DNA of 64,000 bases from Candidatus Methylacidiphilales bacterium (lineage in GTDB: Bacteria; Verrucomicrobiota; Verrucomicrobiia; Methylacidiphilales; CAZTYG01). The notes beneath the pieces were generated by a model that searched no databases, was not told the origin of the DNA, and saw nothing but the letters and a program-made list of their open reading frames with translations. Positions 4,632-54,403 of this stretch are shown piece by piece; position 1 is the stretch's first letter; each line of letters opens with the position of its first letter. The stretch is taken from contig JANRJG010000041.1 in NCBI GenBank assembly GCA_033875315.1, positions 64,467 through 128,466 on the forward strand. Reading direction: 5' to 3'. The position numbers and the translations under genes were made by a program.

Positions 4632-5773
4632 CAGAACTCCTTTCCGGGCTGGGGAGGACTCTTTACCGCGCCGATCACTGCGTACAATCCCTTGCTCCTC
4701 TCGATCAGTGTTTTGCAGCCTTCATTCAGGAACCAACCCCACGTGAACATTCCTCCCAACGCCACCCCGAATACCAGAAATCCGGAAGCCATGTGGTACG
4801 TGCTTGGATGCTCCAAATCCCCGATGGCCACCTTGCTGCCCAATAGAAGAGTGCCGAAGGTGAGCATGAGGATGCGACAAAAGTTGCCCAGCACGGCAAA
4901 CGGGGCCGCCGAAAGAAAAACCAGCCAACCCCGCCAATGGTCGGTGAAAAAGGCCAGGAATTCGACGCACCCCCTCTGCCAAAACGGCCCCCCAGCCACC
5001 TGCTTGCGCCATCCGGCCAGGGTGTCGTCTTTGGTGGTACCGAAATAGGCGAAAAGGGCGGAAACCATGGTCAGGGCAAAGAGCGACCGGATACCGCTGC
5101 ACGGATCGGCCACATCCAGGGCGAATCGGGCCCCCTGGGCCAGCCCGCGCACCGGATCAGGAGCCGAAACAATCGACGTCCCCACCCGCAGAACGTCGAG
5201 GCCGATGAGATTCAGAAACCCATGCGAAAAACGGGCCATGATGTCACGCAGGGGAAATGCGATCGTCGCTTCCAGAAATGGCATCGGCCAGGCAAAAAAC
5301 AGAAAAGCATAGGGAAAAAAAACCGCCCGCAACAGCGGCCAACCAAACAGCCACACTGCCGTGGCCCCAATCATGAGATGAAAAACCAAAAAGCTGAAAA
5401 CCACGATGTCGATGAGGTAACCAACCCAGAAGAGCCCCATGCCTAACAGGAAAAGATACAATCCGGAAATCTGCCCCTCCCAAGGAACATCTCGCAATTT
5501 CTCACGATCCAACCAAATGATGAAAAGGGAAATCAGCGGCACCAATTGGCAGTGCTCCCATTCTTTTGCGTGCTTCCACATCCAGAGGAGGTTGGAGACC
5601 ACCGAAGTCGGCTGGTCACCCCAACCCGCCCCATAGGGGAACAAGGCAAACATCAGGGCCAAGCCGGCACCGGCCGCTGCCACAGAAGCCGAAGGCATGA
5701 GCCATACCGGAAATCGCGAATGGCTTCCGTTCTGCATGGCCAACAAAGTAGACACATCGCCCGAAGGTTCCAA
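4631..5773 (-). CDS. exosortase (Xrt family; subtype not assignable)
   Basis: Polytopic membrane protein with the exosortase catalytic-type motifs DPCSGIRS (Cys), LGNFCR (Arg) and a later conserved His (YHMASG). Partnered with EpsI. Confidence 0.85.
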   Translation of the reverse strand: MEPSGDVSTLLAMQNGSHSRFPVWLMPSASVAAAGAGLALMFALFPYGAGWGDQPTSVVSNLLWMWKHAKEWEHCQLVPLISLFIIWLDREKLRDVPWEGQISGLYLFLLGMGLFWVGYLIDIVVFSFLVFHLMIGATAVWLFGWPLLRAVFFPYAFLFFAWPMPFLEATIAFPLRDIMARFSHGFLNLIGLDVLRVGTSIVSAPDPVRGLAQGARFALDVADPCSGIRSLFALTMVSALFAYFGTTKDDTLAGWRKQVAGGPFWQRGCVEFLAFFTDHWRGWLVFLSAAPFAVLGNFCRILMLTFGTLLLGSKVAIGDLEHPSTYHMASGFLVFGVALGGMFTWGWFLNEGCKTLIERSKGLYAVIGAVKSPPQPGKEF

Positions 5774-48269: not shown

Positions 48270-49418
48270 TCAATCCAAGGGCAGATGAAAGGGCAGCCAT
48301 TTCACGCGATAAAAGAGACGTCCAGCGCCGGCGGGGTCATGGTCCGTCAGGACTTCGGCCCCTGCCCCTTGGATGACAGAACCCAGCGAAGTCCAAGTCA
48401 CCAGGTCCGGTGATGACTCTACCTGATAACCATTTTTATTCACTCCAGGAAAACGCAGACGGACTTGCAAGCCCGGAAGGATTTCCAAAGAAGGCTTAAG
48501 TTCGGGGAGGGAGGGATTGAATACCACGGTGCCATGATTAAAGACGACCGGCGAATCCATCAACACAGGCGCGTTCCAGTTTGCCCAATCATTGGTCGAT
48601 TCAACGTAAGACATTCTACTGTAAATAGCATCGGCAAAGTAAAACCGCCAATTCGTGCCGCCCAGGTGGACCATGGTGCCGCCTTCCTTATAAGCACCAA
48701 TGCCCTGCCAATTCCCGCCACGGACCACTGCATAGGGACCGGTCAGGGCATTAGACTTGGCCCATTGGATACAACTTGTCGATACATCAAAGTAAAACAA
48801 GTGGTACTCTCCTCCCCGCTTCACCACATAGGCATCATAATACCCCACGAATGTGGTGCTCCCCGGGGGATGGGTGAATGAGGGGAAAGCACTTCCAGTC
48901 AATTCCGTCGGAGCAGACCAGGAGGACCATTGCCCGGATGATGTGGGATGGATCTCATACAAACGATGCTCGCGGGTTATCAGCGGTGAAACACTGAATA
49001 ATATGTGCAGCGATCCATCGTCGTCGCGAAACCACTCCGGAGCCCAGGTGTAGTTTGTGTTCGGAATACCTGCGGTACTGACATCGATCACCTTGGTCCA
49101 GTTGACCAAGTCGGTAGACCTTAGGATGGTGAAGTAGGCCGCGTTCCCCAAATTACTCCCAGCGGTGTGGCAGACATACCAAGCATCCGGCAATTTGATA
49201 ATCGAAGGGTCGCGCAGGGTTTCGGGTGAAGTCGTTGTAAAAACCGGCCCCCCGGTGAGCGGATCAAAGCGCCTGCCATCAAATGAGGAAGCGAGATAAA
49301 GTTGTGTCTGAGCCGAATTGGAAAACGTGGCAAAGTAATAGCGCGGCGTTGTTGCGTCGAGAGACCAAGCCCGCGTCATGCCGCAAAAAACCGCCGTGCC
49401 GGCAGCCGCACAGCGCAT
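48270..49418 (-). CDS. secreted beta-propeller glycoside-hydrolase-like protein (GH43-like) with C-terminal beta-sandwich
   Basis: Signal-like start MRCAAAGTAVFCGMTRAWS. LRDPSII, WAPEWF and AYKEGGTMV resemble 5-bladed propeller hydrolases. Weak call. The track start is 49553. Confidence 0.42.
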   Translation of the reverse strand: MRCAAAGTAVFCGMTRAWSLDATTPRYYFATFSNSAQTQLYLASSFDGRRFDPLTGGPVFTTTSPETLRDPSIIKLPDAWYVCHTAGSNLGNAAYFTILRSTDLVNWTKVIDVSTAGIPNTNYTWAPEWFRDDDGSLHILFSVSPLITREHRLYEIHPTSSGQWSSWSAPTELTGSAFPSFTHPPGSTTFVGYYDAYVVKRGGEYHLFYFDVSTSCIQWAKSNALTGPYAVVRGGNWQGIGAYKEGGTMVHLGGTNWRFYFADAIYSRMSYVESTNDWANWNAPVLMDSPVVFNHGTVVFNPSLPELKPSLEILPGLQVRLRFPGVNKNGYQVESSPDLVTWTSLGSVIQGAGAEVLTDHDPAGAGRLFYRVKWLPFHLPLD

Positions 49419-49777
49419 CAAAGACTTGATGTCCAGATGAATCACTCTGCCATGGTATCCAAGCCCGGGATCGCCTTCAATACTTATTATTGCTAAGTTA
49501 GGTGTCTCTTTCCCCCATTCTTTTAGAGAAACAAGCAACCAGGACCAAGACATGCCGGCCCCTGATGTCCCTCACGAGGAGACCCAAGAGAACTTGCGTC
49601 AAAAGAACCGTTCTCACACATGTCCAACTGCGCGTTCCCGCCTCGTTTCGCTCGAGGTGTAAACGCACACCAATCAACCAGACAGGGCGGATCAATCAAA
49701 CAAAGAAAAAACACGAGAGCCCCATTGCAGAAGCGTCCGTGGCCATCCCGCCCTACGTCCCCGCATTTGGATTAGAA

Positions 49778-51775
49778 TCAACCGCTCACTTGTCGCTCTG
49801 TACCAACAAAACCCCTGATCACCCTCACCATGCGGTCGATCTGGGCCGGGGTCAGGCCGGGATAGACTCCGATGAAGATCGCCTCATTCATGATTCTATC
49901 CGCACCCGGGAGAAGGCTTGTTGCTCCTTGTTTGCCCCGGCTTCCCCCGACGACGCGGAACGCGTCCGGGTTGTCATGACGCAACTGGACGAATGCCGGC
50001 TGGCGGACGAGGTTGCCACCAAAGAGCATGCGGTTGCCGATCTTGTGTTCGTCCAAATGCCGGGCCAGATCTGTGCGGGAAAAAGGAGCCCCGGGCTTCA
50101 CCAGCATCATGAAGCCGAACCAGGACGGACTGCAGCGCAGCCCGTGTTCATGTGACATGTCTGAGTTTAAGGGAGAAAGACCGTCGGATTTCCATCCGAA
50201 TGAGGCCTCCTGCCATTCGTCTTTTCTTGAACTTAAACCTTCAACTTCAACTCCCAACCATGCGGATGCATGGGTGGGCAGGGCAAACTCCAGCACATCC
50301 TCCAGCCCGGCCAATCCCCGGCGCAACAATTCCCAGTTGCGTTTGCGGGCCTCGATGAAGGCGGGCATCTTCTTCAATTGGGCCCGGCCGATGGCCGCCT
50401 GCGGATCGAGCGGCTTCAGGTTGTAGCCGATGTGGCTGTAGATGTATTTGTGGTCGTAGCCCTCGGGCAGTTCACCCAGTTGCCAGCCGAACCGTTTCCG
50501 GCAGGTGTTATCGACCCCGCTGGCGCACCAGCAATCCCGGCCCCAGTCCCGGAAGCTCTCCACCAGCACCTTGAGCTTCATGTCCTTGACGATGTTGATG
50601 GCCCCACCCTCGCCCATGGTCAGGTGGTGCGGCGGGTAGAAGGACTGTGTGCTGAGGTCACCGAAAGTGCCGGTGTAGGCGGTCAAAATCCCGTCCACGA
50701 TACGGGGGATTTTGAGTGCCTGGTTCTGTGTGTTTGATTCTGGGTTGGCTCTCGCGCGCTGGAGAAGATGCTGCAATCCCAAGGATTCGGCCAACGCGAC
50801 GGGAAGCGAATATGTGCAACCCAGGGCATCACAATTGTCCTCGATCAGCCAGAGGTCGTGTTTTTTGCAGAAGGCCAGCACGGTGGCCAGATCGAAGGGG
50901 TTGCCCAGGGCGTGGGCCATCATGACGGCCTTGGTTTTCCCGGGGACAAAGGCTTCCTCCAAGCGGGAGAGATCGGCGTTGCCGGTCGTGGGGTCATTGT
51001 CGAGGAAAACGGGCACCGCGCCATTTTGCAGGATCGGGGCCACGGTGGTGGGGAATCCGGCCGCGCAGGTGATGATTTCGTCGCTGGGACGGATGCGTTT
51101 CTCCGGTGGCAGTTTGTGGCTGGTCAGGGCGGTGAAGGCCAGCAGGTTGGCCGAAGAGCCGGAATTGGTCAGGATACAGCGGCGCACCCCGAGGAATTCC
51201 GCCAGTTCGGATTCAAAAGCCTCACCCTCCTTGCCCAGGGTGAGCCAAAAATCGAGGGTGGCGGAAACCGCCGCCGTCACTTCGTCTTCATCAAAGACAC
51301 GACCGGCGTAGGGAATGGCTTCCGGCTTCAAGTTTCCGGCTTCAAGTTTCCGGTGGGTTTCAGCCTCCGTTTCCAAGCGGACCTCATCATCCCCGGGCCT
51401 TTGCGCCAAGTGGGTCAGGCGGGAGAAGGAACGGGAATTGGACAAGGCCAAGGCTTTGTGACAATCCTTCAAACGAGAGGGCTTCAGTGACGCGCCCCAA
51501 TCCCGAAGCTCGGATTCATGAACGGTCAGAAAGCGGTCTGTGCGGATATAACTCGTCTTCAGCAAACGACCGCTGGCCAGATCTTCCTGGGTAAAGGCGA
51601 TCGCATGAGGATAGTGCGGCGCACCGGTGACTTTGAGAAGAGTGACGTCACCCTGTTTATCAGCGCCCGTGATCGCCAATGCAGGCCTGCTTTTCGAAGA
51701 AAAGGATGCCGACCCCTTGCGGTCGGAATCCGTATGTGGCCAGTCAAGGTAGTAAAAGCGGCCGGGTTGGATCAT
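49778..51775 (-). CDS. rfbH: RfbH/DdhC-type CDP-6-deoxy-4-hexulose 3-dehydrase with an N-terminal PemK/MazF-like domain fused in frame
   Basis: Residues ~150-665 match RfbH-family motifs from memory: YAGRVFDEDEV, NSGSSANLLA, AAGFPTTVAP, SFYPPHHLTMGEGG (His replaces the PLP Lys), DWGRDCWCASGVDNTCRKRFG (Cys cluster), GYDHKYIYSHIGYNLKP, SWFGF, RMLFGGNL. Residues 1-~110 look like a PemK/MazF toxin: GRFYYLDW, SKSRPALAIT, LLKTSYIRTDRFLTV. Confidence 0.8.
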   Translation of the reverse strand: MIQPGRFYYLDWPHTDSDRKGSASFSSKSRPALAITGADKQGDVTLLKVTGAPHYPHAIAFTQEDLASGRLLKTSYIRTDRFLTVHESELRDWGASLKPSRLKDCHKALALSNSRSFSRLTHLAQRPGDDEVRLETEAETHRKLEAGNLKPEAIPYAGRVFDEDEVTAAVSATLDFWLTLGKEGEAFESELAEFLGVRRCILTNSGSSANLLAFTALTSHKLPPEKRIRPSDEIITCAAGFPTTVAPILQNGAVPVFLDNDPTTGNADLSRLEEAFVPGKTKAVMMAHALGNPFDLATVLAFCKKHDLWLIEDNCDALGCTYSLPVALAESLGLQHLLQRARANPESNTQNQALKIPRIVDGILTAYTGTFGDLSTQSFYPPHHLTMGEGGAINIVKDMKLKVLVESFRDWGRDCWCASGVDNTCRKRFGWQLGELPEGYDHKYIYSHIGYNLKPLDPQAAIGRAQLKKMPAFIEARKRNWELLRRGLAGLEDVLEFALPTHASAWLGVEVEGLSSRKDEWQEASFGWKSDGLSPLNSDMSHEHGLRCSPSWFGFMMLVKPGAPFSRTDLARHLDEHKIGNRMLFGGNLVRQPAFVQLRHDNPDAFRVVGGSRGKQGATSLLPGADRIMNEAIFIGVYPGLTPAQIDRMVRVIRGFVGTERQVSG
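50226..50253. repeat. solo copy of the ~28-nt cassette-arm element, in frame inside rfbH
   Basis: cttgaacttaaaccttcaacttcaactc. Its reverse complement shares the first 12 nt (gagttgaagttg) and an 8-nt block (tttaagtt) with 53187-53216. About 20 of 26 positions match 53594-53619 in the same orientation. Confidence 0.65.
51322..51349. repeat. perfect 14-nt tandem duplication (ccggcttcaagttt x2) inside the PemK-RfbH linker
   Basis: Read directly from the sequence. Encodes ...KLEAGNLKPEA... Confidence 0.8.
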
Positions 51776-51987
51776 TTGCCGGGGATTTCAAAGAGTTCTT
51801 CCGCAGATTCATCTTCATCCCCTCGGATGAAGGAAGGCATTTGCAGGTCCAGCATCGCTTTTCGTTCGAGCGAGATACTCAGAAGCTCATTTTCGGTATA
51901 AAGTTCTAAGTGTGCCCCCTCGGGAATGGGTTCGCTCGAGTCTATGACCCGCAACACGCCACCCTCCTTGACGACAGTGATACTCAT
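51772..51987 (-). CDS. small antitoxin-like protein (DUF104/AF2212-like N-terminus)
   Basis: 71 aa MSITVVKEGGVLRVIDSSEPIPEGAHLEL... with an acidic tail. ATGA overlaps at both ends: with the rfbG stop (51984-51987) and the toxin-domain start (51772-51775). The track's longer 145-aa version overlaps rfbG. Confidence 0.5.
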   Translation of the reverse strand: MSITVVKEGGVLRVIDSSEPIPEGAHLELYTENELLSISLERKAMLDLQMPSFIRGDEDESAEELFEIPGK

Positions 51988-53225
51988 AATGGTGCATGAT
52001 ACTCCCTGATCTGTCTCCGGGTCAATTCTCCCGGATTGCCCCCCTCGTGAACTCCACGATACCACGCCACGGTTTGTGACAACGTGGTGGCAAAATCCCA
52101 TCGCGGTGACCAGCCCAACAGATGATGGGCCTTGTCCCAGACGAGATTGAGCTTCCCGGCCTCGTGGGGGGCGTTCGGGTCGGAGCGGTCCTCCCAGGTG
52201 CCTGGCCAATGTTTGAGTATTTCCTCGACCAGCTCTTCGACCGTCTTGTTGGATTCCAGATGGGGACCGAAGTTGAAGGCGGCGCAGAGCTCTGCCGTTG
52301 AAGGGTTGAAGGGTTGAGAGGTCGAGGGGATTCCACCTTTAAATCCTTCAACGCCGCCTGCGGCGGCATTCACCCCATCAACACTTGCGGCGAGACGAGC
52401 CGCAAGGAGGAGATAACCGGACAGAGGCTCCAACACGTGCTGCCAGGGACGGGTGGAGATTTTGTTGCGCACGGGCACCGGATGTCCGGAAGCAAGGGCG
52501 CGGATGGCGTCGGGCACAATACGGTCCATAGCCCAATCCCCGCCCCCGATGACATTGCCCGCCCGGGCCGAGGCAACGAAGCACGATGCACGAAGCCCTT
52601 CATCTTCGAAAAACGAATTCCGCCAGGAAGCAATGGCGATCTCCGCCGCGCCTTTGCTCGAACTGTAGGGATCGTGGCCGCCGAGCGGATCCACTTCCCG
52701 GTAGCCGTGCAACCACTCACGGTTTTCGTACACTTTGTCGGTGGTGATGAGGACCGCGACGGTCGTCACCTTGCTCAAGTTTGAGTCGGAAGTTGAAACT
52801 CCCCTTAAACTTGCGGCTTTGGCTTCTTGAAGTGCCCTCAGCGCTTCAAGAACATGGATGGTGCCCATGACGTTGGTTTCCCAGGTCTCCACCGGGGTGC
52901 TGTAGGACAAGCGGACCAAGGGTTGGGCGGCCAGGTGGAAGACGAAGTCGGGCGAAATTTCCAATACGGTCTTTTTCACCGAAGCCCCGTCGCGGATGTC
53001 ACCTCGGCGGTCATTCATTCGGGAGGCGAGTCCCAGTTGATCGAAGAGACAGGGCGAGGACACGGGCTCCGGCAGGCTGAAGCCATGGACCTTGGCCCCG
53101 AGGGAGAGGAGCCACTCACAGAGCCAGGCCCCTTTGAATCCGGTGTGGCCGGTCACGAAAACGTTCTTTCCAAGGAACGTTTTCGTGAGTTGAAGTTGTG
53201 AATTTAAGTTTAAGAGGGAACTCAT
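51984..53225 (-). CDS. rfbG: CDP-glucose 4,6-dehydratase
   Basis: VFVTGHTGFKGAWL, FHLAAQPLVRLSY, DKVYENREW, DPYSSSKGAAE, RAGNVIGGGDW, RPWQHVLEPLSGY. Carries in-frame inserts (see findings). Confidence 0.9.
   Translation of the reverse strand: MSSLLNLNSQLQLTKTFLGKNVFVTGHTGFKGAWLCEWLLSLGAKVHGFSLPEPVSSPCLFDQLGLASRMNDRRGDIRDGASVKKTVLEISPDFVFHLAAQPLVRLSYSTPVETWETNVMGTIHVLEALRALQEAKAASLRGVSTSDSNLSKVTTVAVLITTDKVYENREWLHGYREVDPLGGHDPYSSSKGAAEIAIASWRNSFFEDEGLRASCFVASARAGNVIGGGDWAMDRIVPDAIRALASGHPVPVRNKISTRPWQHVLEPLSGYLLLAARLAASVDGVNAAAGGVEGFKGGIPSTSQPFNPSTAELCAAFNFGPHLESNKTVEELVEEILKHWPGTWEDRSDPNAPHEAGKLNLVWDKAHHLLGWSPRWDFATTLSQTVAWYRGVHEGGNPGELTRRQIREYHAPL
52297..52328. repeat. tandem octamer array (gttgaagg x2, gttgagag, gtcgaggg) inside rfbG
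   Basis: Four consecutive 8-nt units. A further gttgaagg lies at 52272-52279 and an inverted copy ccttcaac at 52345-52352. Confidence 0.75.
52824..52852. other. perfect 9-bp hairpin (ttcttgaag / cttcaagaa, 11-nt loop) inside rfbG; neighbouring 9/10 hairpin 52776-52785 / 52804-52813
   Basis: Read directly. Both lie in the segment encoding the rfbG insert ...QEAKAASLRGVSTSDSNLSKVTT... Confidence 0.75.
53187..53216. repeat. inverted-repeat arm (stop-codon side) of four-helix-bundle cassette 2; also encodes the rfbG N-terminal extension
   Basis: gagttgaagttgtgaatttaagtttaagag. The reverse complement of 53594-53619 is cttgaagttgtaattttaagttagag. Matched blocks of 10+5+5+4 nt separated by small bulges. 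Confidence 0.7.
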
Positions 53226-53584
53226 TTTAAGACATCCGGGGTTTTCAGGCTTCTGGTAAACGCATAAAGTATGTGCGAAAAATCCGCACGTTCACGCAGA
53301 TAAGTTTCCAACTCGGCACCGGTTGCGACCGCCAACTCCCAGGCAATCATCAACTGCGATCTAAGTTCACCAAGTGGGCCCCGGGCGATGCCCACAAAAC
53401 GGGCAAATTCCGCAGGAAAGTTTCGTTCCGCCCGTTCTGCGATTTTGGAGGGCACACTGATGGCGGTTCGTAAAATCCGGCCTCGTAGTGCAAAGAAACG
53501 GCAATCAATGAACACACGACAAACGTAGACGGTCGGTTTGTGGGCTCTTTCCCAAATTTCCAGATCCTCAAAGCCTCTGCTCAT
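53222..53584 (-). CDS. four-helix-bundle protein (23S rRNA IVS protein / Avd-like family), divergent copy
   Basis: FEDLEIWERAHK..., RTAISVPSKIAERAER, IARGPLGELRSQL. ATGA overlap with the rfbG start. Confidence 0.75.
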   Translation of the reverse strand: MSRGFEDLEIWERAHKPTVYVCRVFIDCRFFALRGRILRTAISVPSKIAERAERNFPAEFARFVGIARGPLGELRSQLMIAWELAVATGAELETYLRERADFSHILYAFTRSLKTPDVLK

Positions 53585-53635: not shown

Positions 53636-54403
53636 TCACCAAACCTTCCAAGGCGCTTTCCCGCTGTTCCAAAGTTCTTCAAGGTGATTCTTATCCCGGA
53701 GGGTATCCATCGGCTGCCAGAATCCTTCGTGCTTGAAGGCCCTCATCTGGCCTTCGGCGGCCAATCGCTCCATGGGCTCCTTTTCCCAAAGCGTTCCATC
53801 ACCCTCCACATGCCCGAGAACCGAGGGATCGAGGACAAAAAAACCACCGTTGATCCAGGAGCCGTCTCCCTTGGGTTTCTCTTGGAAGGCAACCATTTCG
53901 TCCCCGTCTAGTTGCAGCGCACCGAATCTCCCGCTGGGCTGCACGGCGGTCAAAGTGGCCTTTTTCCCATGGGCCTTGTGGAAGGCGATAAGCGCCTTGA
54001 TGTCAACATCCCCCACACCATCTCCATAGGTCATACAGAAGGCACCGTCCTGCACATAAGGAGCGATCCGCTTCAGCCGCCCACCGGTCATCGTGTCTTC
54101 ACCCGTGTCGACGATGGTGACCCGCCAAGGCTCGGTGCGTTTTTCATGTACTTCCATTTTATTGTCCCGCATGTCAAAGGTTACATCGGATTGGTGGAGA
54201 AAATAATTGGCGAAATATTCTTTGATCAGGTATCCCCGGTAACCCGCGCAAATGACAAAGTCATGGATGCCGTGGGCCGAGTAAATCTTCATGATGTGCC
54301 AAAGGATGGGATAATTCCCGATCTGGACCATGGGCTTGGGCTTGAGGGAGGTTTCTTCGCTGAGTCGGGTGCCCAAACCTCCGGCCAAAAGAACTGCTTT
54401 CAT
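53636..54403 (-). CDS. rfbF: glucose-1-phosphate cytidylyltransferase
   Basis: MKAVLLAGGLGTRLSEETSLKPKPMVQIGNYPILWHIMKIYSAHGIHDFVICAGYRGYLIKEYFANY is nearly canonical RfbF. Confidence 0.92.
   Translation of the reverse strand: MKAVLLAGGLGTRLSEETSLKPKPMVQIGNYPILWHIMKIYSAHGIHDFVICAGYRGYLIKEYFANYFLHQSDVTFDMRDNKMEVHEKRTEPWRVTIVDTGEDTMTGGRLKRIAPYVQDGAFCMTYGDGVGDVDIKALIAFHKAHGKKATLTAVQPSGRFGALQLDGDEMVAFQEKPKGDGSWINGGFFVLDPSVLGHVEGDGTLWEKEPMERLAAEGQMRAFKHEGFWQPMDTLRDKNHLEELWNSGKAPWKVW

Follow-up and report, generated by a model that had tools for sequence, protein, structure and literature searches.

We analysed a stretch of 64,000 nucleotides (the window) from a Candidatus Methylacidiphilales bacterium (contig JANRJG010000041.1, positions 64,467 to 128,466) and find that an open reading frame (ORF) of 665 residues on its minus strand (49778..51775) joins a MazF-like domain in frame to the sugar-nucleotide enzyme RfbH. 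Directly upstream lies a small ORF of 71 residues (51772..51987, minus strand), a putative antitoxin gene that overlaps its neighbours by an ATGA at both ends and is itself preceded by rfbG. The window copy is a typical member of a widespread and apparently undescribed family. Because the catalytic positions of the toxin fold are conserved, the parts co-vary and are exchanged together, and the small ORF is constrained and lost after decay of the toxin domain, we think it probable, if some way from certain, that a type II toxin–antitoxin (TA) cassette sits between rfbG and rfbH, in which a MazF-type toxin is anchored to RfbH by a shared helix and the small protein is its cognate inhibitor.

The N-terminal domain has a MazF/PemK fold

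Residues 1–98 (51482..51775, minus strand) form a seven-stranded MazF/PemK-fold core, as established by a family profile, structure prediction with AlphaFold2 and structural comparison with Foldseek. The initial annotation of this DNA had read residues ~1–110 as PemK/MazF-like from motifs in the translation (PGRFYYLDW, SKSRPALAIT, VTLLKVTG and LLKTSYIRTDRFLTVHESEL). All three methods agree with that reading and structure prediction gives a MazF fold, though the Pfam cut-off for PemK was missed by residues 1–130 (see below). A word-index homology search with residues 1–130 returned no match. An exhaustive HMMER search of 1.84 billion representatives yielded 52 matches, the best of which have the same fused architecture; the others are proteins of ~110 residues that exceed the PemK cut-off at 27.6–52.3 bits. 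The fused homologues P0009, P0016 and P0017 also exceed it (37.0, 36.8 and 29.7 bits, respectively). The family profile (A1) matches Staphylococcus aureus MazF (4of1/4mzm, E 1.7e-6 to 7e-6) and Mycobacterium tuberculosis MazF6 (E 2.8e-5). The AlphaFold2 model of residues 1–130 (predicted local distance difference test, pLDDT, 88.2; predicted TM-score, pTM, 0.79) consists of seven strands and one long helix (99–125), the SH3-like beta-barrel with C-terminal helix of the MazF/Kid/CcdB fold. When this model was compared with the PDB using Foldseek, the top 50 matches were all MazF/PemK-type (MazF-family) toxins (probability 1.00, TM(target) 0.58–0.79; for example 4mzp with E 5.9e-6 and 5hk0 with TM 0.78), from S. 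aureus, M. tuberculosis, B. subtilis, B. cereus, B. anthracis (MoxT) and E. coli.

Both catalytic positions of MazF are occupied by the expected residues. Arg30 (codon 51686..51688, minus strand) is aligned with the Arg in the S. aureus MazF stretch GGVRPVVII, and Thr50 (codon 51626..51628, minus strand) is invariant in alignment A1. Relatives were counted as the best 120 clusters at 90% identity and scored as fused where at least 120 residues precede PYAGRVF and align as the N-terminal domain; the same in-frame domain is present in 102 of these 120 nearest clusters. Among the 102 fused proteins, the window residue is kept at K28 in 93, R30 in 91, P31 in 95, G42 in 96, D43 in 99, T50 in 84 (with Ser in a further 17), G69 in 92 and S75 in 87. 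Mutating either the catalytic Arg or the catalytic Thr of MazF severely lowers its RNase activity, and Ser or Lys variants at the catalytic positions exist in active MazFs (PMC7354611). From its sequence, the N-terminal domain would be expected to act as an RNase.

The toxin fold and RfbH share a helix

The enzyme part of the protein looks intact. Residues 155–665 with the stop codon (49778..51313, minus strand) make up the RfbH/E1 dehydrase body. The NCBIfam equivalog model for RfbH, NF011936, has its cut-off at 423 bits; it gives 615.2 bits here and aligns residues 147–659 with its positions 30–438 of 440. Foldseek superposes the full-length model of the protein on the E1 dehydrase 3bcx_A (E 4.2e-42, TM(target) 0.90, 38% identity). 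The in-frame fusion to a complete RfbH, as originally proposed, is upheld by these matches. The pair H383–H384 and the three cysteines of C415-x-C417-x7-C425 are invariant in 111 aligned relatives; we take these five residues to be the His motif that replaces the pyridoxal phosphate-binding lysine in E1 and the iron–sulphur cysteines. The full-length protein is modelled by AlphaFold2 with pLDDT 86.1 and pTM 0.87.

The junction was located by comparison with unfused proteins. The RfbH proteins of close relatives that lack the fusion begin M..S.LK.EILRLTREYS.L.H..NRPGDD....G.TIPYAGRVF, with their start at the equivalent of query residue ~101, and the window stretch SRLKDCHKALALSNSRSFSRLTHLAQRPGDD aligns with this native N-terminus. 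In both AlphaFold2 models the region is a single continuous helix (99–125 or 99–121). The C-terminal helix of MazF runs on as the native N-terminal helix of RfbH: this welded helix (residues 99–125, SRLKDCHKALALSNSRSFSRLTH; 51401..51481, minus strand) is followed by the RPGDD motif (residues 126–130), where the exchangeable cassette has its 3' edge, and by a variable loop (residues 131–154; motif and loop together 51314..51400, minus strand). What had been described as a linker of ~40 residues is thus the native RfbH helix with RPGDD (residues ~99–130) and the variable loop.

Between RPGDD and IPYAG the loop measures 23 residues in the window, 11 in most relatives and 21 in the Verrucomicrobiota locus L001. 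It contains the perfect 14-nt tandem duplication seen at the outset, GGAAACTTGAAGCC twice (51324..51351, minus strand), which is genuine; Tandem Repeats Finder reports 51320–51353 with period 14, 2.4 copies, 100% match and a score of 68. If one copy is removed in silico, the toxin part no longer shares a frame with the RfbH body and an ATGATG start appears. Because 14 is not a multiple of three, we considered the duplication as the origin of the fusion, and rejected it: alignment with relatives shows the frame to be RfbH-homologous on both sides of the repeat, and a single-copy version would break RfbH. Since the repeat is out of frame and its flanks are nevertheless RfbH-homologous, a compensating insertion or deletion must lie nearby, in the loop of residues 131–154. 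No relative is close enough for this event to be reconstructed.

The fusion recurs in six phylum-level lineages

The exact 665-residue protein is present at NCBI (P0169, 100% identity) from a Candidatus Methylacidiphilales metagenome-assembled genome (MAG), where it is annotated as RfbH only. Some database entries carry precomputed Pfam tags for both PF02452 and PF01041, so that pipelines can see the architecture, yet the proteins are named only RfbH. Twenty-one further loci carry the fusion, making 22 with the window and spanning six phylum-level lineages. In a set of one genome per species, it is found in loci from Verrucomicrobiota (L001–L004 and L015), Cyanobium sp. Morenito 9A2 (L020), Desulfobacterota bacterium M19 (L064), Magnetococcales (L067), Dehalococcoidales (L075) and a Bacillota MAG (L078); the Cyanobium and M19 records bear no MAG label. 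The fusion point is identical in all fused loci and the frame stays open in all 22. When 93 loci were searched with a hidden Markov model (HMM) of the N-terminal core, every match fell in a frame of 540–790 residues continuous with RfbH, and no stand-alone copy of the domain was found among them. Fused and unfused forms are interleaved, since the identity between plain and fused RfbH bodies reaches 88%.

The initial annotation had envisaged a local insertion of a TA pair followed by loss of the toxin stop codon. The N-terminal domain, however, is conserved in the RfbH of 102/120 clusters, in six lineages and at the same junction. It thus belongs to the enzyme over a wide range of lineages, which removes the local event and leaves the fusion itself in place. 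Synteny at the rfbG–rfbH junction of relatives shows the module present, swapped, degenerate or absent (plain RfbH).

The N-terminal domain and the small ORF are exchanged as a cassette

Both parts are under purifying selection, and they co-vary, are swapped as one and are lost together. At 45% identity, at least seven clusters of N-terminal domains can be distinguished, and five degenerate domains stand as singletons. Pairs of proteins share on average 33% identity in the N-terminal domain and 72% in the RfbH body, with a Spearman correlation between the two of only 0.08. RfbH bodies that are 95.7% identical are found with N-terminal domains that are 29.9% identical, and bodies of ~95% identity carry domains of only 25–30% identity. 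The boundary is sharp: between P0188 and P0258 identity rises from ~27% to ~97% at the motif H-x-ANRPGDD. At the DNA level, the loci L081 and L083 are 87.7% identical in rfbG and 86.7% in the rfbH body, similarity ends at the 3' end of rfbG, and the 650–1030 nt between rfbG and the rfbH body, in which the small ORF is swapped along with the N-terminal domain, cannot be aligned. L083 also holds an orphan second small ORF (5455–5772, 105 residues) with a C-terminal half of the type found with N-terminal domain cluster 2 (cl2), upstream of a small ORF/toxin pair of cluster 0 (cl0); it may be the relic of an earlier, replaced cassette.

Ratios of nonsynonymous to synonymous substitution (omega, Nei–Gojobori) were calculated for two pairs of loci. 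For L083 and L092 they are 0.23 in the N-terminal domain, 0.02 in the welded helix, 0.07 in the RfbH body and 0.03 in the small ORF (dS 0.67), the last value signifying strong purifying selection. For L081 and L003 they are 0.125 in the N-terminal domain, 0.07 in the RfbH body and, from few changes, 0.27 in the small ORF. On these low values, the N-terminal domain and the small ORF are both maintained coding sequences.

The small ORF of the window (MSITVVKEGG...EELFEIPGK) appears in the automatic ORF listing as a TTG-started frame of 145 residues; its homologues start at the ATG. Its ATG (51987–51985) shares bases with the TGA of rfbG (51986–51984), and its own TGA (51774–51772) shares bases with the ATG of the fusion gene (51775–51773). 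The protein has a beta-rich N-terminal half (MSITVVKEGGVLRVIDSSEPIPEGAHLEL) and an acidic/aromatic C-terminal tail (QMPSFIRGDEDESAEELF). Homologues stand directly upstream of the fusion in L002 (66% identity), L020, L001, L004, L083, L092 and L093. More broadly, an ORF of 66–93 residues that overlaps the fusion gene or ends no more than 25 nt from it is present upstream in 17 loci (the window, L001–L004, L020, L064, L078, L081, L083, L085, L086, L087, L090, L091, L092 and L093). These are all of the 17 loci with a recognisable N-terminal domain, compared with none of the five in which the domain is degenerate (L089, L088, L075, L015 and L067; Fisher p ~4e-5 by hand calculation, for loci that are not phylogenetically independent). 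In the degenerate loci (L089, 3001–4911; L088, 3001–5091; L015; L075; L067) K-x-R-P is lost and the Thr mostly so, and the domain is still fused. In L088, ~570 nt without a convincing ORF separate rfbG from the probable start.

The type of the small ORF follows the cluster of the N-terminal domain, in that the C-terminal half tracks the cluster and the N-terminal half can be common to several types. For example, cl0 and cl2 small ORFs are nearly identical in their N-terminal halves (MSIEVIKEGNVLRV...) and differ in their C-terminal halves (QMPSFIRGDEDE..ELF versus SYREWLDDSSWDEAI). Such modularity is usual in type II antitoxins. In co-varying with the toxin domain, being swapped with it and segregating 17/17 versus 0/5, the coupled, antitoxin-like ORF behaves as the cognate partner that it had been proposed to be. 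Its suggested membership of the DUF104/AF2212 family fared less well: PF01954 (AF2212-like/DUF104) gave no match to the 71-residue protein even at E<=10. The positional equivalent in the Bacillota locus L078 passes that model (23.8 bits versus a cut-off of 21.6); for the window protein the resemblance is visual and the DUF104 affinity is a lead only.

Stand-alone relatives of the N-terminal domain

Metagenomes were scanned with six stand-alone relatives of the N-terminal domain, giving 80 loci (L094–L173), of which 69 were examined. The stand-alone toxins in these 69 loci are 100–147 residues long. In 37/69, the upstream ORF ends in a common tail, W-[DN]-N-x-x-[DE]-[DE]-x-W-[ND]-x-[VA], which is joined to different N-terminal domains; representatives match the Pfam models for MazE/AbrB (46.2 bits), Phd/YefM (34.8 bits) and DUF2281 (25.3 bits, just below the cut-off). 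Two further groups of upstream ORFs with this tail look ribbon-helix-helix (RHH)-like or AF2212-like and have no Pfam match. The stand-alone loci are a clear example of antitoxin domains being shuffled while the toxin-binding peptide stays the same. Since the stand-alone kin are canonical TA toxins, the fused domain can be taken to descend from ordinary TA toxins. In a comparison aimed at the monophyly of the fused N-terminal domains, BLAST scores to the fused and stand-alone groups are similar, for a stand-alone set that included fragments of fused proteins.

Operon context

The ORFs, ATGA overlaps, motifs, HH and C-x-C-x7-C residues and TTG/GAGG of the initial annotation were all recovered where it had placed them. 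As a whole, the window is a cluster for glycan synthesis; its genes include several of GT2 type and one for an RmlD-like reductase. Its CDP-sugar block starts with an rfbF-like nucleotidyltransferase gene (53636..54403, minus strand; PF00483 NTP_transferase, 63.7 bits), a putative glucose-1-phosphate cytidylyltransferase with this substrate predicted. It continues with a gene for a four-helix-bundle protein of 120 residues ('23S rRNA intervening sequence protein'; 53222..53584, minus strand; PF05635 63.4 bits, TIGR02436 63.3 bits) and with rfbG, encoding CDP-glucose 4,6-dehydratase (51984..53225, minus strand; TIGR02622 446.6 bits), the 3' end of which is the 5' edge of the cassette. Three successive ATGA overlaps (53225–53222, 51987–51984 and 51775–51772) link the four-helix-bundle gene, rfbG, the small ORF and the fusion gene, and make them one translationally coupled string. 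The order rfbF – rfbG – small ORF – fusion recurs among the loci of relatives. GC content at third codon positions (GC3) is 0.56 in the small ORF, 0.60 in the N-terminal domain and 0.50 in the four-helix-bundle gene, compared with 0.68 in rfbG and 0.74 in the rfbH body.

The four-helix-bundle gene is a second 'guest' gene in the operon, lying between rfbF and rfbG with its stop overlapping the rfbG start and a GC3 of 0.50. A similar gene is found in L001 (3004–3519), there between rfbG and the small ORF. Downstream of the fusion gene, the minus strand encodes a protein of 427 residues (48270–49553) with weak N-terminal matches to GH43 and GH32 (38.7 and 30.6 bits); in most relatives, the place after rfbH is taken by an epimerase or reductase gene instead. 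Beside the fusion, the rfb clusters of relatives also hold PIN with Phd/YefM, ORF6N, SLFN_AlbA_2, RHH with nucleotidyltransferase (MNT)/HEPN, and HepT-like/NTase_sub_bind genes (L081, 602–1224 and 8498–9670; L085, 4932–6085; L091, 5009–5771; L086, 7510–7923). These glycan clusters seem to accumulate TA- or defence-like modules.

A model for the cassette and its alternatives

A type II cassette with an enzyme-anchored toxin could work as follows. The operon transcript would give rise, by ATGA-coupled translation, to the small acidic-tailed protein and the toxin–RfbH fusion, and the aromatic/acidic C-terminal tail of the small protein would bind the MazF domain of the (presumably dimeric) fusion and hold it inactive. 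The small protein is also predicted to be labile. Were it no longer supplied, because the locus had been lost or replaced or its expression shut off, the enzyme-tethered MazF domain would cut RNA and arrest growth. Because the helix is common to toxin and RfbH, the toxin could not be deleted without damage to the enzyme, and so the cassette would persist. Entrenched in this manner, it would either be replaced whole, by recombination in its flanks (the rfbG 3' end and H-x-ANRPGDD), or decay in place, with the toxin degenerating before the antitoxin is lost. The selective reason for its presence would be addiction and selfish entrenchment or, alternatively, defence.

Several results weigh against this model. 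The N-terminal domain of the window misses the Pfam gathering score for PF02452 (23.1), with 20.8 bits for residues 1–130 alone, over profile positions 16–107 of 109, and 16.3 bits for the full protein, and a single-sequence search of the PDB with the domain gave chance matches only (E>1). Pfam and NCBIfam scans found no match for the small ORF of the window and eight variants, PADLOC found none at the locus including the small ORF and its variants, and a comparison of two small-ORF groups with hhalign was not significant (probability 0.4%, E 0.14). An HMM of the stand-alone antitoxin tail reached no better than E 3.4 on the small ORFs of fused loci, and the likeness of their aromatic-acidic-aromatic tails therefore stays qualitative. 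Residues 1–135 had no tblastn match in plasmid and phage collections. Members in which Arg30 is replaced (P0200, Ser; P0175, Met) keep the small ORF, so its role may exceed neutralisation of an RNase, and degenerate N-terminal domains are kept rather than deleted, as would also fit a structural role in RfbH. Finally, there is no intergenic space upstream of the pair in the window, where the small ORF overlaps the rfbG stop. This ATGA overlap leaves no room for a promoter or operator and makes classic TA autoregulation unlikely in the window; some relatives do have a gap before the small ORF (~270 nt in L087, for example), although no search was aimed at operators.

That the fusion is a one-off accident or artefact of this genome alone, arising from stop loss, a frameshift caused by the 14-nt duplication or mis-assembly, is barely conceivable: deletion of one repeat copy does split the frames and expose ATGATG, but the flanks of the duplication lie in the RfbH frame, a single copy would break RfbH, and the same fusion point is found in more than 100 independent sequences, 22 loci and many assemblies, two of the records being without a MAG label. 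It is also very improbable that RfbH is made separately from an internal start, at TTG 51376 or another codon, with the toxin frame incidentally open and either a free toxin-like peptide or nothing functional being produced. The TTG (51376–51374) does have a GAGG five bases upstream (51385–51382), as first noted, and a second product would be compatible with the sequence. However, this codon lies downstream of the conserved RfbH helix and RPGDD, both of which are read in the upstream frame, and inside a variable loop that most relatives lack; between query residues 96 and 154, Met is absent from 77/99 fused proteins and occurs in at most 6/99 at any one alignment column. The omega of 0.02 in the helix and a frame open in 22/22 fused loci argue in the same direction, and an internal TTG start with incidental read-through is not supported.

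The main rival accepts the fusion and holds that the MazF fold is a domesticated, non-toxic accessory domain with a structural or regulatory role (dimerisation, or RNA or ligand binding), the small ORF encoding a partner, chaperone or regulator. It would account for a fusion that is old and stable, with a helix common to domain and enzyme, for degenerate domains that persist without the small ORF, for Arg30-substituted members that retain it, for a small ORF that falls in no recognised antitoxin family and for a window cassette without promoter space of its own. We nevertheless regard it as unlikely, if worth serious consideration. A housekeeping module should co-evolve with its enzyme, yet the Spearman correlation is 0.08 and 95%-identical bodies carry 25–30%-identical N-terminal domains with matching changes in the small ORF. 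The Arg and Thr of the catalytic positions are retained in ~90% of members, plain RfbH proteins with identities of up to 88% function in the absence of the domain, and the MazF superfamily is not known in non-toxin roles (PMC2701414). Domestication would, moreover, leave the turnover of cassettes unexplained. A further alternative concerns only the purpose of the same cassette, which might serve against phages (abortive infection) or in strain conflict, as a module linked to the operon for surface glycans, rather than merely being a selfish addiction element. Phages use surface glycans as receptors, near-identical backbones differ in cassette type, a turnover like that of conflict systems, and PIN/Phd, MNT/HEPN, SLFN_AlbA_2 and ORF6N genes occur beside the fusion in the rfb clusters of relatives. 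We consider this purpose improbable on present evidence, however: PADLOC finds no match, no phage or plasmid copy was found, no trigger is identifiable from the sequence, and a neutral or selfish element would explain the decay series of degenerate toxin and lost antitoxin just as well.

Returning to the cassette as an enzyme-anchored TA pair, we tentatively raise a broader possibility, namely that the rfbG–rfbH junction is a dedicated exchange site for such cassettes and that an active MazF RNase on the RfbH dimer might be freed when expression of the glycan operon is disturbed by phage takeover or by replacement or loss of the cluster. If true, glycan identity would be tied to a strain-specific growth-arrest switch, and the family would represent TA or defence systems of a new class, with a polymorphic intracellular toxin borne by a metabolic enzyme.

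MazF/PemK proteins are regarded as free, single-domain toxins, whereas here the toxin domain is integral to a sugar-nucleotide enzyme. The family comprises at least ~100 distinct sequences from six phylum-level lineages that are publicly labelled simply 'RfbH', and automatic pipelines overlook both the toxin domain (the proteins being named RfbH) and the small ORF. It offers a natural series of at least seven intact cassette types, catalytic-Arg mutants with the antidote-like gene, degenerate domains without it and plain RfbH, which could show the fixation and subsequent decay of a selfish TA module in a host gene. It also offers a test of whether TA modules have a stabilising or policing effect on polysaccharide gene clusters, where exchange and phage selection are concentrated.

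Comparison with known systems

No equivalent had been known to the initial annotation, and targeted full-text literature searches likewise found no description of a MazF/PemK–RfbH (DegT) fusion. The MazF superfamily seems to have no role except as a toxin, and small genes adjacent to its members are treated as antitoxins (Makarova et al., PMC2701414); a survey of MazF-family operons gives antitoxin types and no enzyme fusion (PMC3879964). With MazEF/PemIK (Kis–Kid) the present system has in common the toxin fold and the Arg and Thr at the catalytic positions, as well as a coupled small upstream gene that co-varies with the toxin and whose product is acidic/aromatic in its C-terminal region. 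The nearest stand-alone kin of the N-terminal domain are canonical pairs with MazE/AbrB, Phd or DUF2281 antitoxins. It differs in that the toxin of MazEF/PemIK is a free protein of ~110 residues, whereas here it is the N-terminal domain of a 665-residue enzyme with which it shares its last helix; the small ORF, moreover, matches no antitoxin family, and the window pair has no promoter region of its own.

The enzyme part corresponds to RfbH/AscC/DdhC (CDP-6-deoxy-D-xylo-4-hexulose-3-dehydrase, E1; PDB 3BCX/3BB8), with the same model match, fold and HH and C-x-C-x7-C residues, and is likewise encoded after rfbF and rfbG. In contrast to those proteins, it lacks a start codon of its own at the usual N-terminus, carries ~100 extra residues with a MazF fold and has a longer loop between RPGDD and IPYAG. 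AF2212-like antitoxins (DUF104, COG2880) are predicted members of the AbrB superfamily that are mostly paired with PIN toxins (PMC2701414; PMC3879964), and DUF104 is named among the putative antitoxins found with MazF-family toxins (PMC3879964). The N-terminal pattern of the small ORF is similar to theirs by eye and the L078 equivalent passes PF01954, but the window protein does not match that model at E<=10 and the comparison of small-ORF profiles was not significant.

The overall organisation may also be likened to the polymorphic toxins of contact-dependent inhibition (CDI) and Rhs systems. In these, a conserved secreted or delivered carrier bears a variable toxin module with a linked immunity gene, and the modules are exchanged by recombination. 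The module described here differs in being N-terminal and intracellular, on a carrier that is a cytoplasmic metabolic enzyme without secretion signal or delivery apparatus. The analogy would lie in the combination of a conserved carrier, a variable toxin and a co-varying small gene with exchange at a junction motif, which in this case is H-x-ANRPGDD.

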